Shown in pieces: positions 4,340-30,777 of a stretch of 51,802 nt of DNA. Source of the stretch: Escherichia phage vB_EcoS_NBD2. The notes under the pieces are model-generated. The model had not been told where the DNA came from, did not search any database, and saw only the letters and a program-made list of their open reading frames with translations. Location: the sequence record NC_031050.1. One strand, written 5' to 3'. The stretch's first letter is position 1; each line of letters starts with the position of its first letter. A program made the translations under genes and the position numbers.

Positions 4340-4373
4340 TTGCTAAAACTTGCCCAGGGGCATTTGATAGAAT
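4331..4373 (+). promoter_or_regulatory. motif promoter (CAGCACtaaTTGCTAAAAC, 22 nt, TAGAAT)
   Basis: Motif 4331-4349, -10 4368-4373. Confidence 0.5.
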
Positions 4374-4413
4374 GCCTCTCATCAAGTTAACGCAACCAAC
4401 AAACGAGGCAGTT

Positions 4414-8218: not shown

Positions 8219-8258
8219 CACGAATTGCTAAAACTCCCCTGGGGTAAGCTGTTATAGT
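8216..8258 (+). promoter_or_regulatory. motif promoter (TAGCACgaaTTGCTAAAAC, 22 nt, TATAGT)
   Basis: Motif 8216-8234, -10 8253-8258. Confidence 0.55.
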
Positions 8259-8289
8259 TACCCCATCAAAACAAACCGGAGCAGCAAAA

Positions 8290-25766: not shown

Positions 25767-28700
25767 ATGAAAAATAACATGATAGTGACAGGCCGGAAGG
25801 GTGGAAGCAGCAAGCCGAAAACCCCAAAGGAAATGGAAGATAATTTAATCTCCATTAACAAAATCAAGGTATTGCTAGCCGTTTCAGATGGCGAGTGCGA
25901 TCCAGATTTCTCGCTGAAAGATCTGTATTTGAATGACGTTCCGGTGATCGCGCCATCCGGCGAAGAGAACTACAAGGGAATCATTGCAGAGTTTCGCCCA
26001 GGTACGCAGACGCAGGATTACATTAAGGGCTTCACCGACACCGCCAGCGAAATTACAGTTTCGCGAGTGATTAAGGCCGATAACCCTTACATCATCGCCG
26101 TTACCAATAAAACGCTTTCGGCTATCAGAATCAAGATCCTTGCCCCGCGCATGGTATACACCGAATCCGATGGCGATATGGTTGGCACCAAAGTTGAATA
26201 CGCGGTTGATATGGCGATTGATGGCGCAACTTATCAGCAGGTGTTTAAAGACACGATCGACGGAAAAACAATGTCGGGTTACGACAGAAGCAAGCGCGTA
26301 GACCTGCCAGCTTTCAACGATCAAGTGTTGCTGCGAGTTCGCCGCATTACGGCTGATTCAACGGATGCGCGCCGCGTTGATGAAATTCAGGTTCAGTCTT
26401 ACGCCGAAGTGATTGATGCCAAGTTCCGCTATCCCCTGACGGGTTTAGTTTACGTTGAGTTTGATTCTGAAATGTTCCCGCAGATGCCGAACATTTCCGT
26501 TAAAAAGAAATGGAAACTTGTTAACGTTCCGAGCAACTACAACCCTGTTTTGCGCGAATACGTTGGCACATGGGATGGCGTATTCAAAAAGGCGTGGACG
26601 AATAACCCAGCGTGGGTGCTGTACGATTTGATCACCAATCAGCGCTACGGACTCGATCAAAGAGAGTTAGGCATCGCGGTTGATAAGTGGAGCCTTTACG
26701 ACGCAGGCCGATATTGTGATCAGATGGTTCCAGACGGAAAGGGCGGAACAGAGCCGCGCTATCTTTGTGATGTGGTTATTCAGTCGCAGATTGAAGCGTA
26801 TAACCTCGTGCGCGATATTTGCTCAATCTTCCGAGGTATGAGCTTTTGGAACGGTGAAAGCCTTTCCATCGTGATTGACAGGCCGCGCGAAGCGTCTTAC
26901 ATCTTCACGAATGACAACGTGGTTAACGGTTCATTCTCCTACACTTTCGCCAGTGAAAAGAGCATGTACACCACTTGCAACGTGACGTTTGACGATGAAC
27001 AAAACATGTATCAACAGGACGTTGAAGGCGTTTTTGATCTGGAAGCCTCCGTGCGATTCGGGCACAACCCGACGAGCATCACGGCGATCGGATGCACCCG
27101 CCGAAGCGAAGCAAACCGCCGAGGGCGCTGGATTCTGAAAACGAACTTGCGCAGCACAACGGTTAACTTTGCAACTGGTCTGGAGGGGATGATTCCGATG
27201 ATTGGCGACGTGATCGCAATTGAGGACAACCACTGGAGCAGCGGCAACAAGCTTTCTTTATCCGGTCGAGCGATGGAAGTTAGCGGCCTGCAGGTGTTTA
27301 CTCACTTCCGAGTTGATGCGCGCCCAGGTGATTTCATCATCGTAAACAAGCCTGATGGTAATCCGGTTCGCCGCACGATTTCGAACGTATCGGCAGACGG
27401 CAAAACGATTATGTTGAACGTTGGTTTCGGGTTTGATGTTAAGCCGAACGCAGTTTTCGCCATTGACCGCACAGACGTTACTTTGCAGCAGTACGTTGTT
27501 ACGCAGATCAGCAAGGGCGATGGAAGCGATGAGTTTTGCTATTCAATCACGGCGGTTGAGTACGACCCGAACAAATACGACGAAATCGACTACGGCGTAA
27601 ATATTGATGACCGACCGACAAGCATCGTTGATCCCGACAACATGCAGCCGCCTAAAAACATTCGCGTGTCGTCTTACTCGCGAGTTGTCCAGGGCATGAG
27701 TGTTGAAACGATGGTTATCGGCTGGGATAAGGCACCGTATTCGAGCACTTATGATGTGCAATGGCGCAAGGATAATGGCAACTGGAACAACGTTCCACGA
27801 ACCGCAAACAGTGAAGTTGAGATCGAAGGAATTTACTCCGGCAACTATCACGTGCGCGTGCGGTCAATCTCAAGCGGCGATAACATGTCTCCGTGGTCTG
27901 CGGTTGTATCGGTTGGCTTGACGGGCAAAGTTGGTGAGCCAGCAACACCAATTAACCTGACGGCTACGGATAACGAAGTGTTTGGGATTCGCGTTAAGTG
28001 GGGAATGCCTACTGGATCAGAGGACACGGCTTATATTGAGTTGCACCAATCGCCTGACGGCACGGCGCAGAATGCAAGCCTGTTAACTATGATTCCTTAC
28101 CCGCAGTATGAATACTGGCACTCAATACTTCCGGCTGGCTTCGTTGATTGGTATCGAATCCGCAGTGTTGACAGGATCGGGAATGTTTCGCAATGGACAA
28201 AGTTTGTGCGCGGCATGGCCTCTGATGACGTTGATCAGATCATGGACGTAATCAAGATTGACATTGAAAATTCCGAAGGGTTCAAGGAGCTTGCAGAAAG
28301 CACTATCGACAGCGCAAACAAGATTCGTGAGCAGGCGCAAACTGATATTCAGAACGCACTGGCTAACGATTACAATCTGATCTGGACTCGCAAGCAGAAC
28401 GGCAACCGCAAGGCCGAATACGGCAAGGCAGTTGAGCTTATCGCTACAGAAACAGAGGCGCGAGTTGCAGCAATCGAAGAGCTTAGGGCGAGCATTGGCG
28501 ACGATATCCAGGGGCAGATCATCACGCTACGCGAGGCGATCGCAACCGAGGAAGAAGCGCGAGTGAAAGCGGTTCAACAGCTTGATGTGAAATTCACAAA
28601 CGGCCTGGCAAGTGCAAACGCTAACATCGGCAGGCTTGATGAGGCGGTTGTTAACGAGCAGCAGGCGCGGGCGCAGGCGATCACCTCGCTTGATACGAAA

Positions 28701-29369
28701 TTCACAAAACAGGTTGGCGATCTGCGAACTGAAACGCAAGCGGCTATCACCCGCGTTGACAAGGCAATTGCAGACGAGGCGAGCGCGCGAGCAACGGCGA
28801 TCACTCAAGTTGAAGCCAAGACAACAACGGCGCAGAATACCGCGAACAACGCTAACCAAGCGGCGGGAAATGCACAGAATACCGCTAACCAGGCGGCAGC
28901 AACGGCAAGCCAAAAGCTTGACTCCTGGGTTAATGGCACGTCGATTGGCTCAAGCTATACGTTGAAGCTGGGCGTTAAGTACAATGGGGTTGACTACAAC
29001 GCCGGAATGAATATGCAGTTGGTTGGAACGGCAGCGGCACCGAAAGCGCAAATGCTGTTTGATGTTGACCGCTTCGCAGTGGGCAGAATCAGCGGCGGAA
29101 CGCTGGCGCAATTCCCGTTTGTTATCGAAGGCGCGCAAGTATTCATGCAGTCTGTTTTCATCAAAGACGGCTCGATCACAAACGCGAAAATCGGTAATGT
29201 GATTCAGTCAAACAACTATGTTGCAGGTCAGACAGGTTGGAAGATTGACAAAAACGGTAACTTTGAGCTTAACGGCAAGGCTGGCACAGGCCGGATGGTA
29301 ATTAGCAACAACATCATCCAGATCTATGACGCAAACAACCGCCTTCGTGTTCGTATGGGATTGTGGTAA
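25767..29369 (+). CDS. central tail fibre / host specificity protein (lambda J-like)
   Basis: 1200 aa after the I-like gene; long coiled-coil repeat segment in the C-terminal third. Confidence 0.75.
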   Translation: MKNNMIVTGRKGGSSKPKTPKEMEDNLISINKIKVLLAVSDGECDPDFSLKDLYLNDVPVIAPSGEENYKGIIAEFRPGTQTQDYIKGFTDTASEITVSRVIKADNPYIIAVTNKTLSAIRIKILAPRMVYTESDGDMVGTKVEYAVDMAIDGATYQQVFKDTIDGKTMSGYDRSKRVDLPAFNDQVLLRVRRITADSTDARRVDEIQVQSYAEVIDAKFRYPLTGLVYVEFDSEMFPQMPNISVKKKWKLVNVPSNYNPVLREYVGTWDGVFKKAWTNNPAWVLYDLITNQRYGLDQRELGIAVDKWSLYDAGRYCDQMVPDGKGGTEPRYLCDVVIQSQIEAYNLVRDICSIFRGMSFWNGESLSIVIDRPREASYIFTNDNVVNGSFSYTFASEKSMYTTCNVTFDDEQNMYQQDVEGVFDLEASVRFGHNPTSITAIGCTRRSEANRRGRWILKTNLRSTTVNFATGLEGMIPMIGDVIAIEDNHWSSGNKLSLSGRAMEVSGLQVFTHFRVDARPGDFIIVNKPDGNPVRRTISNVSADGKTIMLNVGFGFDVKPNAVFAIDRTDVTLQQYVVTQISKGDGSDEFCYSITAVEYDPNKYDEIDYGVNIDDRPTSIVDPDNMQPPKNIRVSSYSRVVQGMSVETMVIGWDKAPYSSTYDVQWRKDNGNWNNVPRTANSEVEIEGIYSGNYHVRVRSISSGDNMSPWSAVVSVGLTGKVGEPATPINLTATDNEVFGIRVKWGMPTGSEDTAYIELHQSPDGTAQNASLLTMIPYPQYEYWHSILPAGFVDWYRIRSVDRIGNVSQWTKFVRGMASDDVDQIMDVIKIDIENSEGFKELAESTIDSANKIREQAQTDIQNALANDYNLIWTRKQNGNRKAEYGKAVELIATETEARVAAIEELRASIGDDIQGQIITLREAIATEEEARVKAVQQLDVKFTNGLASANANIGRLDEAVVNEQQARAQAITSLDTKFTKQVGDLRTETQAAITRVDKAIADEASARATAITQVEAKTTTAQNTANNANQAAGNAQNTANQAAATASQKLDSWVNGTSIGSSYTLKLGVKYNGVDYNAGMNMQLVGTAAAPKAQMLFDVDRFAVGRISGGTLAQFPFVIEGAQVFMQSVFIKDGSITNAKIGNVIQSNNYVAGQTGWKIDKNGNFELNGKAGTGRMVISNNIIQIYDANNRLRVRMGLW

Positions 29370-29370
29370 T

Positions 29371-29399
29371 AAAAAAGGAGCCGAAAGGCTCCTTTTATT
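29371..29399. terminator. bidirectional intrinsic terminator (GGAGCC-gaaa-GGCTCC)
   Basis: A-run upstream and T-run downstream of hairpin between convergent genes. Confidence 0.7.
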
Positions 29400-29732
29400 T
29401 TAGATGATTTTGTTGGGATCTGGTAGGTAACGGGAAGTCTGTGATGCGATCATGTCATCGCGCCCCATCTTTCCTTTGCCAAAGGCGAACTTCATGGAGT
29501 AGTTGCCCTGGTCTTTGTAGCACATCACGCTAACGTTTTTTCGAAGGTGCTTATCGAAAATCACGTTGCTTGATTCCTGAATGGTGATTTCTTTATTCTG
29601 GCAATCAAGATTAAAAGTAACCTCGCCAGTTAGTGAGAGGCGGCTTGCATCAACCGGATAGCCAATATTAATGTTTAAAGCCATAGCATTTAAAGGCAAC
29701 AGGAAGAGCACAGCGAGCATGATTTTTTTCAT
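29400..29732 (-). CDS. secreted small protein (candidate superinfection exclusion or receptor-blocking protein)
   Basis: Signal peptide MKKIMLAVLFLLPLNAMA; RBS acgagga; lies just downstream of J on the opposite strand. Confidence 0.45.
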   Translation of the reverse strand: MKKIMLAVLFLLPLNAMALNINIGYPVDASRLSLTGEVTFNLDCQNKEITIQESSNVIFDKHLRKNVSVMCYKDQGNYSMKFAFGKGKMGRDDMIASQTSRYLPDPNKII

Positions 29733-29763
29733 TGGTACTTCCTCGTTTCGTTAAGTTGAAATG

Positions 29764-29806
29764 AGTATAGCCCCATTTGCGGGGCTTGTTTTAGCAATTC
29801 GTGCGG
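29764..29806 (-). promoter_or_regulatory. motif promoter on - strand (CCGCACgaaTTGCTAAAAC, 22 nt, TATACT)
   Basis: Reverse complement of 29788-29806 is the motif; -10 is reverse complement of 29764-29769. Confidence 0.45.
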
Positions 29807-30460
29807 TTAGTTGTAACCCTGGAATTTCGCGTATGGTATTTTGAGGTTTCCGCGACCGTTGAAGATTTCAGAGAAAGAGCGTTGGTTTCTTCTGATCCAG
29901 TATGTCTGCAACTGCGATCCCGTCCAGCGCATGAGGTTGCCGGAATAACCCTGAGTTTCTCCGTCGTCGCTCCATTCACCGTAACAGGCATCCCAGAGAA
30001 AGAAGGGGTTAAAACCTGGAGTCACGGAGGCAACGTTAGCCTCAAGGTTGAATGACGCCGGAACGTCAAGGAATCCCATTATTCGAGGCATTGTTGCGGC
30101 GCTAGCGGCAGTCCAAACAAGATTACCGGAAGCGTCGAATACGTCGAGATAGCCGGACGCAAGCGCCTTGTTTCTCGAAGTCCTGATTATCCTGATTGCG
30201 TTAGTGCTGAACATATCCGCGCCAGGGTAGCCCCACTGGTTATTACCTGTAAACTGAATCCAGGTTAGAAAACCATCCTTGCGCTTATCACCATCGCGAA
30301 GATTGCCAAGGGCTTTAACGTCGCCAAATGGCGTGCTTAGGCTGTAAGCCCCAACGTCAATTAGCGGCTGCGGAGTGTAGACGGAATCAAAGATCGTATG
30401 CTTTTGATCGGAGTTGATCAGGACAACACCAGCGTTATTAAGTACCTCAAAGCCTGACAT
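29807..30460 (-). CDS. hypothetical protein
   Basis: 217-aa ORF, first or second gene of a - strand operon from the 30.8-31.2 kb control region. Confidence 0.5.
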   Translation of the reverse strand: MSGFEVLNNAGVVLINSDQKHTIFDSVYTPQPLIDVGAYSLSTPFGDVKALGNLRDGDKRKDGFLTWIQFTGNNQWGYPGADMFSTNAIRIIRTSRNKALASGYLDVFDASGNLVWTAASAATMPRIMGFLDVPASFNLEANVASVTPGFNPFFLWDACYGEWSDDGETQGYSGNLMRWTGSQLQTYWIRRNQRSFSEIFNGRGNLKIPYAKFQGYN

Positions 30461-30468
30461 AAAGCCCC

Positions 30469-30777
30469 CTAGTTAAACACGTAAACTTCAATGGTAAGAG
30501 TCTGATCAACAAACGGGTTGCTTGTTGGCAGGTAAAGAACATCAACGCCGCCGTTTTTCGTCACGGCTGCATAGCTGGGTTTATACACAGCGCCAGCAGA
30601 TGCCACCATGACAACCGCGAACGAGTTGGCACCAGTCAGCCCAGCTACGTTGAAAGAAACCGCGCGAGTAGTTCGCGGGAATGATATGTTTTGCCGGACA
30701 ACAAAGCGCGTGCTGAAATCGCCAAGATCGACAACCAGGTTTCCGCTTGCATCCCAGGCTTGCAGGCCAGCAGGCAT
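30469..30777 (-). CDS. hypothetical protein
   Basis: 102-aa ORF with RBS ggagga upstream of ATG at 30777. Confidence 0.5.
   Translation of the reverse strand: MPAGLQAWDASGNLVVDLGDFSTRFVVRQNISFPRTTRAVSFNVAGLTGANSFAVVMVASAGAVYKPSYAAVTKNGGVDVLYLPTSNPFVDQTLTIEVYVFN

Follow-up and report, generated by a model that had tools for sequence, protein, structure and literature searches.

A diverged TonB-like exported protein encoded beside the J-like gene of a T1-like phage is a candidate YncD-directed superinfection-exclusion factor

The receptor-recognition locus that follows gene J is known to encode exclusion lipoproteins, including Cor, Llp-like proteins and Rtp45 (PMC8594841, PMC13164509, bioRxiv 10.1101/2025.07.07.663478). 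Small and exported, Cor and Llp (on FhuA) and Rtp45 (on LptD) bind the periplasmic face of the receptor used by their own phage, and the receptor altered in this way no longer fits the receptor-binding protein (RBP). Exclusion proteins encoded beside receptor-binding genes have so far been described for FhuA (Cor, Llp) and LptD (Rtp45), and the factor of the YncD-type locus appears in published accounts only as an accessory gene left unnamed. YncD, also called PqqU, is a TonB-dependent transporter, one of the outer-membrane transporters whose Ton box is gripped by TonB through its C-terminal domain (CTD). Infection by the phages IME347 and IsaakIselin depends experimentally on YncD (PMC6499177, PMC8594841). 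IME347 infects a tonB deletion mutant, whereas its relatives that use FhuA or FepA are TonB-dependent. A 2026 preprint assigned one locus-encoded family to YncD recognition and mentioned one or two uncharacterised accessory proteins (bioRxiv 10.64898/2026.04.02.716166).

Here we describe such an accessory gene in the genome of a T1-like siphovirus, analysed as a single window of 51,802 nucleotides whose locus region is 97% identical to that of Klebsiella phage vB_KM5a1_KLB19 (Drexlerviridae, Vilniusvirus) and 96.5% identical to that of HazelMika. The gene encodes a protein of 110 residues, starts with ATG and is convergent with the J-like gene, from which it is separated by 30 nt. This is exactly the arrangement and these are the coordinates claimed in the initial annotation, an ORF on the opposite strand right after the J-like gene; the ribosome-binding site that it had also claimed was identified as GAGGAA at 29744-29739, 6 nt before the ATG. 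Two further genes lie behind it, encoding proteins of 217 and 102 residues, and the next gene after these is that of exonuclease VIII, on the plus strand. The features of the locus are as follows.

25767..29369, plus strand: J-like central tail fibre or tip attachment protein of 1200 aa (Pfam FNIII-A_GpJ, Phage-tail_3 and Phage_Tail_Tip; PHROG 31).
29373..29396, no strand assigned: G+C hairpin with A- and T-run flanks, common to the J and 110-aa genes and resembling a bidirectional terminator (sequence).
29400..29732, minus strand: coding sequence of the 110-aa exported protein, stop codon included (ORF list, PHROG 25729, 42 phage-record homologues, dN/dS).
29403..29474, minus strand: C-terminal tail, mature residues 69-92, with a D-M-I-A-x-Q-x-x-R motif, outside the TonB-like core (pLDDT; conservation in close relatives).
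29475..29663, minus strand: predicted TonB-C-terminal-like core, mature residues 6-68 (YP..A..L...G motif, invariant F, two invariant Cys, helix-strand-strand-helix-strand).
29679..29732, minus strand: predicted signal peptide, residues 1-18 (MKKIMLAVLFLLPLNAMA), of signal peptidase I type, with A-x-A and without a lipobox (read from the sequence; 14 relatives).
29739..29744, minus strand: ribosome-binding site GAGGAA, 6 nt before the ATG (sequence; kept in 8 loci).
29764..29804, minus strand: promoter-like element, composed of the motif GCACGAATTGCTAAAAC (29804-29788) and the -10-like hexamer TATACT (29769-29764) (seven copies; footprint in 8 phages).
29769..29786, no strand assigned: G+C hairpin AGCCCC-GCAAAT-GGGGCT in the promoter spacer, terminator-like only when read on the plus strand (sequence).
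29807..30460, minus strand: 217-aa protein of the DUF8377 family, candidate YncD-type receptor-binding protein (IsaakIselin and IME347 homologues; PHROG 4524).
30469..30777, minus strand: 102-aa protein, constant partner of the 217-aa protein (ORF list, PHROG scan, genome comparison).

The 110-aa ORF is a real coding gene: its product matches PHROG 25729 with E = 2.6e-56, and the dN/dS of the mature domain was 0.06-0.24 in eight informative pairs, values that place the gene under purifying selection. The window protein gave 0 matches to Pfam at E<=1, and scans of this protein alone against Pfam, NCBIfam and PHROG returned nothing informative about its function. For the 217-aa protein our Pfam scan returned no match either; PF28254 (DUF8377) is recorded on its prophage homologues. 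A repeated (W/F)DASGNLV motif occurs in both the 217-aa and the 102-aa protein, whose N-termini are also similar.

Upstream of the 110-aa gene, a sigma-70 consensus scan found no promoter, and a canonical -35/-10 promoter was rejected, the spacer between TTGCTA and TATACT being 22 nt long; the motif becomes visible only when its copies are compared. The window contains seven copies of the promoter-like element (A)TAGCAC(G/T)AATTGCTAAAAC, four on the plus strand (1287, 1913, 4339 and 8224) and three on the minus strand (29798, 49928 and 51191), and a 14-mer of the motif has 6 matches against 0.69 expected. In every one of the seven copies the -10-like hexamer follows TTGCTA after exactly 22 nt, and every copy stands 64-75 nt upstream of a start codon. 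These copies serve small, non-structural genes, and there is none in the structural operon at 10-29 kb or upstream of the 102/217 pair. Motif, hexamer and spacing are kept upstream of the 110-aa gene in 8 T1-like phages, even where the spacer sequence is unrelated (Bas11, Skenny), a pattern of conservation such as a functional promoter should leave. The motif promoter proposed for this gene in the initial annotation is borne out to this extent, as one of seven fixed-spacing copies conserved in 8 phages. The motif may mark a phage-specific, perhaps early, transcription class; a literature search on the motif found nothing relevant.

Hairpins recur around these elements. Several copies have the -10-like hexamer inside a G+C-rich hairpin (1306-1327, 1932-1953, 4360-4385 and 8247-8272; for example GGGGCTAT-GCAATA-ATAGCCCC). 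The copy at the 110-aa gene differs in that its hairpin lies next to the hexamer. The spacer hairpin is missing from the Bas11 and Skenny versions and, not being conserved, was not treated as part of the mechanism.

The N-terminus of the 110-aa protein was read directly from the sequence. It runs MKKIMLAVLFLLPLNAMA followed by LNINIGYPVD, with a charged n-region (MKK), a hydrophobic core of about 12 residues (IMLAVLFLLPL) and Ala at positions -3 and -1 (A-x-A), which places the cleavage between NAMA and LN and gives the protein the marks of a Sec and signal peptidase I substrate. No Cys lies near the predicted cleavage site of the window protein, and the lipobox of Cor and Llp is accordingly missing from it. 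This layout is kept in all 14 of the closest relatives, so that the earlier description of a cleavable-looking signal peptide without a lipobox Cys agrees with the window protein and with its clade. A periplasmic location of the 110-aa protein is, on these features, very likely. Pro, Ala, Arg and two Cys are invariant throughout the family, and Tyr, Gly and Phe at least nearly invariant; the fully conserved Cys pair is consistent with a periplasmic disulphide.

Elsewhere in the family the mode of export differs. A canonical lipobox (LAGC, VGC or SAC) is present in the orthologues of HK639 and Eeyore, in those of 4 prophage loci of E. coli and in those of 11/11 genome loci of Enterobacteriaceae; the N-terminus of the HK639 protein, MKLLFAAALLLVAGC followed by TNT, is a textbook case. 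In a third clade (KLB16 MVRK020, L006:4165-4752; P0023-27; P0036) an N-terminal region of 90-170 residues with repeated H-x-EAL-x-MD motifs is followed by a positively charged stretch, a hydrophobic segment and then the TonB-like domain; the hydrophobic segment of this long form is a candidate membrane anchor. Even among close relatives the lipobox Cys may be present or absent (P0022 and P0038 versus P0039). Since the family comprises forms with a signal peptide, with a lipobox and with a putative membrane anchor, the domain would always lie beyond the inner membrane, and since orthologues have the lipobox that the window clade lacks, the lipid anchor appears to be interchangeable.

The identity of the exported domain emerged from structural and profile comparisons. 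An AlphaFold2 model of the 92 mature residues, built from an alignment of 27 sequences, was of moderate confidence overall (mean pLDDT 75, pTM 0.56) and better in the core (81-90), with the predicted topology helix-strand-strand-helix-strand that characterises the alpha-beta-beta-alpha-beta fold of the TonB CTD. The first eleven Foldseek matches of this model in the PDB were all TonB or HasB, with probabilities of up to 0.98 and weak E-values (0.05-1.2); against BFVD, the fold search returned only the 110-aa family itself. A family HMM searched against 177,635 distinct PDB sequences gave 7 matches at E<=10, 7/7 of them TonB (E = 0.025-0.6), and hhalign aligned the family to E. coli TonB with E = 2.2e-4 and, over 70 columns, to a TonB profile with E = 2.6e-5. 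The Pfam family TonB_C (PF03544) was matched by 3/27 family members, with a best E of 0.02, and was the only Pfam family matched by more than one member. NCBIfam TonB models gave E-values from 4.6e-4 to 0.14 (4.6e-4 for the long form, 0.029 for the HK639 form), far below the cut-offs; as with the Pfam gathering threshold of TonB_C, every individual sequence score was sub-threshold.

Residue by residue, Y25, P26, A29, G36 and F59 of the family align with QPQYPARAQALRIEG...NMFEREV of TonB, that is, with the hallmark residues of the TonB domain. When, in reverse, an HMM of enterobacterial TonB was searched against 3026 ORFs, the top ranks went to the lipoprotein and long forms (E = 0.0014-0.04), whereas with this narrow HMM the window protein scored only 1.5 bits, which is not significant; the link of the window protein to TonB therefore runs through its family. 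TonB was the sole outcome of five independent searches, two structural and three sequence-based, and neither Pfam, PHROG and Foldseek PDB searches nor Pfam searches with the family members revealed any similarity to Llp or Cor. We regard the assignment of the modelled domain to the TonB CTD fold as fairly secure. The protein is not a bona fide TonB energy transducer: its domain follows directly after the signal peptide, and the long-form relatives have a putative anchor and no proline-rich spacer. The C-terminal tail has a pLDDT below 50 at residues 70-81, which are predicted to be disordered, and contains D93, I95, Q98, T99 and R101, all invariant among close relatives.

These results also settle in part a suggestion of the initial annotation, that the protein may act differently from the lipoproteins found at this position because it has no lipobox Cys. 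Different it appears to be, and not for the missing lipobox, which its orthologues possess (LAGC, VGC, SAC); the difference lies in the predicted TonB-C-terminal-like fold.

The family to which the protein belongs (PHROG 25729) is small, is restricted to phages and prophages of Enterobacteriaceae and has no member with an annotated function. A first search of 5.8 billion proteins yielded 13 clusters, a search of 1.84 billion 18 representatives, and a profile search 26 clusters. The 110-aa gene was present in 42 phage records, and the 217-aa protein was encoded in 42/42 of them, although only 57/50,697 annotated phage records encode this protein at all; in enterobacterial prophages, too, it accompanied the 110-aa homologue in 15/15 loci.

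Three layouts of this association were observed. In T1-like phages the order is J, 110, 217, 102 and exonuclease VIII, as in Bas10 and Bas11, with the 110-aa, 217-aa and 102-aa genes on the strand opposite to J. In lambdoid phages and prophages (HK639, Eeyore, 4 loci from E. coli and 11 from Enterobacter, Franconibacter, Pseudescherichia and Siccibacter) J is followed on the same strand by genes for proteins of about 100 and about 213 aa, and the 110-aa homologue is convergent with these, overlapping by 36 nt. In KLB16-like genomes the 110-aa homologue lies about 16 kb from the 217-aa gene, among early and replication genes and far from the tail genes, and two related metagenomic contigs likewise have it among early and replication genes. 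More distant 102/217 modules, in which the pair directly follows J on the same strand, have no 110-aa homologue (Klebsiella phage JVSB2, L015; Cronobacter phage SG01, L016); these modules may recognise a different receptor or have no exclusion gene. As distant 217-aa modules do without it, the 110-aa gene is an accessory and not a structural member of the module.

The HK639 lipoprotein homologue is unannotated in the GenBank record of that phage (HM208537, about 23.5-23.9 kb; L004:4420-4782). Its ORF runs convergently 36 nt into the 3' end of HK639_25, an arrangement seen again in the E. coli and Enterobacter prophages.

The partner of the 110-aa gene points to the receptor. The 217-aa protein of the window is 98% identical to IsaakIselin bas10_0025 and 74% identical to its IME347 homologue, and its locus has the published marks of the YncD type, namely a position directly downstream of the gpJ homologue and membership of a locus-specific family at >30% identity (Maffei 2021; bioRxiv 10.64898/2026.04.02.716166). 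Both IME347 and IsaakIselin carry the 110-aa gene as well as the 217-aa gene. The 217-aa protein is on this basis the candidate YncD-type RBP of the window phage, YncD dependence being known for IME347 and IsaakIselin only. The argument from position made in the initial annotation, that genes at this place often encode exclusion proteins, holds up well here: the gene stands in a receptor-recognition locus with Cor, Llp-like and Rtp45 precedents, and its linkage to the candidate YncD-type RBP is 42/42.

Within the locus, alleles are shuffled. Compared with IsaakIselin, the window has a block of 93-100% identity that begins near 29,680 and ends near 30,760, with sharp recombination junctions to flanks of 60-75% identity. 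Within the block lie the signal peptide, the promoter and both the 217-aa and the 102-aa gene, and its left junction coincides with the boundary between signal peptide and mature domain of the 110-aa protein, at the cleavage site. The window and IsaakIselin are 98% identical in the 217-aa protein and 47% in the 110-aa protein, while IsaakIselin and Bas11 are 60% and 95% identical, respectively. Across 11 genomes the 217/102 pair always travels together and the 110-aa allele combines freely with it, and this free reassortment means that there is no signal of co-evolution between the 110-aa and 217-aa alleles.

Among the 217-aa protein, the 102-aa protein and the C-terminus of the adjacent J protein, it was the last whose variation gave the best rank correlation with that of the 110-aa protein (0.92). 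A coupling of the two was nevertheless rejected, as IsaakIselin and Skenny show 90% against 53%, an exception that makes the correlation one of linkage and not of coupling.

Because the 110-aa gene always occurs with the 217-aa/102-aa pair that marks YncD phages, we propose that it encodes their cognate exclusion or receptor-inactivation factor. An exclusion function is plausible, with a chance that we put at even or slightly above, by analogy with the proteins of neighbouring locus types; that the factor docks on the periplasmic face of YncD, at its Ton box, is a bolder statement, to which we give a little less than an even chance. From fold, linkage and precedent we infer that the target is YncD, that docking takes place at the Ton box and that exclusion results. 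The gene would be transcribed from its own promoter, of the class that drives the small non-structural genes of the phage, and its product exported by Sec and released into the periplasm by signal peptidase I. There it would mimic TonB, docking on YncD from the periplasmic side with a beta-strand added to the Ton box, and would keep the plug and loops in a conformation unusable for the phage RBP, possibly with the help of the conserved C-terminal tail. The infected cell or lysogen would thereby be protected from related phages, and progeny would be spared loss on cell debris.

Docking on the Ton box is the least certain step of this scheme. Simple competition with TonB as the block to re-infection was rejected, IME347 being TonB-independent; because this phage infects a tonB mutant, a conformational effect on YncD must be assumed, like that of Llp on FhuA. 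Counting against exclusion at YncD are the absence of co-evolution between the 110-aa and 217-aa alleles and the membrane-anchored variants, which have no spacer for reaching the outer membrane. A non-structural role is favoured by the promoter class, found only before small non-structural genes, and by the KLB16-like copies situated among early and replication genes.

The same observations were weighed against other explanations. The main rival, which we consider unlikely, is that the protein is a general inhibitor of the TonB pathway, a soluble look-alike of the TonB CTD that caps many Ton boxes or binds TonB or ExbD, in effect a natural dominant-negative fragment. A phage that does not need TonB might, in this doubtful case, use it, not for masking its own receptor, but to shut out TonB-dependent competitors such as T1, phi80 and H8-like phages, together with group B colicins, or to reduce uptake by the host. 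The TonB-like fold and motif would suit such an inhibitor, as would the uncoupling of the 110-aa allele from the RBP allele and the membrane-anchored variants, placed near ExbD and TonB and not at the outer membrane. Howard et al. in 2001 reportedly found that periplasmic TonB fragments exported by a signal peptide block FhuA and FecA transport and sensitivity to phi80 and colicin M. With IME347 independent of TonB and its FhuA- and FepA-using relatives dependent on it, only phages of the IME347 type could afford a general TonB inhibitor. TonB fragments are also known to inhibit energy transduction competitively (bioRxiv 10.1101/2022.09.26.509584). What a general inhibitor leaves unexplained is the exclusive association with the YncD-type 217-aa protein (42/42 and 15/15): the 110-aa gene never occurs with LptD-, TolC- or LamB-type modules, whose phages have receptors other than TonB-dependent transporters and so are not expected to need TonB either.

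A distinctly unlikely variant of YncD exclusion is that the protein acts like Llp and wedges itself from the periplasm against the plug or the rim of the barrel, making no contact with the Ton box, its TonB fold being a scaffold or an over-read model. The locus logic would be that of Cor, Llp and Rtp45, Llp itself makes no Ton-box contact, the sequence E-values against TonB are marginal, and the conserved tail, absent from the model core, could be the true binding element, as the hairpin is in Rtp45. Yet TonB is all that five independent searches bring up, the family's invariant residues are the hallmark residues of TonB, and no similarity to Llp or Cor was found. More improbable still is a periplasmic role unrelated to exclusion, such as modulation of the envelope or of lysis timing, a decoy against Ton-box bacteriocins or a lysogenic conversion unconnected with entry. 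No family member is annotated and the prophage copies are moron-like in their arrangement, lying convergently where the tail operon ends, all of which would fit; on the other hand, such a role does not explain the strict linkage to one receptor-binding module in three layouts, and in T1-like and lambdoid genomes the gene is not near the lysis cassette.

We thus favour, tentatively and at somewhat less than an even chance for the reading as a whole, a diverged TonB CTD that is sent to the periplasm (free, lipid-anchored or membrane-anchored depending on the lineage), occupies the Ton box and locks the YncD receptor, which would constitute an undescribed class of exclusion protein and the first case of a virus mimicking the docking domain of TonB. 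Our literature search found no description of a phage-encoded TonB-like exclusion protein. If the proposed TonB mimicry is true, phages would have a second, structurally different route to a TonB-dependent transporter from the inside, and the protein would be a natural compact Ton-box binder for probing or inhibiting TonB-dependent uptake. The gene would, in the same case, mark YncD tropism and cross-exclusion in phage cocktails against Klebsiella, E. coli and Enterobacter. That a single family changes between soluble, lipoprotein and membrane-anchored forms would mean that this class of function can do without a lipid anchor.

Compared with Cor (T1, phi80, HK022, N15) and Llp (T5), lipoproteins of the outer membrane by which FhuA is inactivated from its periplasmic side, the 110-aa protein is likewise small and exported, has a Cys pair, occurs in virulent and temperate siphoviruses and has a TonB-dependent receptor as its presumed target. 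Its gene, like that of Cor, lies beside receptor-binding genes right after J, whereas Llp is encoded beside the T5 RBP in a different locus. Unlike either, the T1-like clade has no lipid anchor, the predicted fold is that of the TonB CTD, and the target would be YncD and not FhuA; Llp, moreover, jams the FhuA plug without touching the Ton box. With Rtp45 and SE_Oeko, the LptD-directed exclusion lipoproteins of Rtp and Oekolampad (bioRxiv 10.1101/2025.07.07.663478), the protein shares its origin in an accessory gene of a receptor-type-specific post-J locus, an intramolecular disulphide and binding to the receptor from the periplasmic side, the last two being predicted or presumed for the 110-aa protein. 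Those proteins differ in being about 6 kDa in size, against about 10 kDa and a TonB-like fold here, in sending a hairpin into the LptD lumen and in having a target that is not TonB-dependent.

Set against the TonB CTD itself (PF03544; PDB 2GRX, 2GSK, 1XX3), the 110-aa protein falls below the curated thresholds, has neither an energy-transducing anchor nor a proline-rich spacer, is phage-encoded, adds the putative disulphide and a conserved tail of 24 residues and, in the T1-like clade, would be a free domain. Its design is that of the engineered dominant-negative periplasmic fragments of TonB, with which it shares the combination of a signal peptide and a TonB-CTD-type domain released into the periplasm; those fragments, however, are truncated host TonB, whereas the 110-aa protein is a highly diverged viral one.
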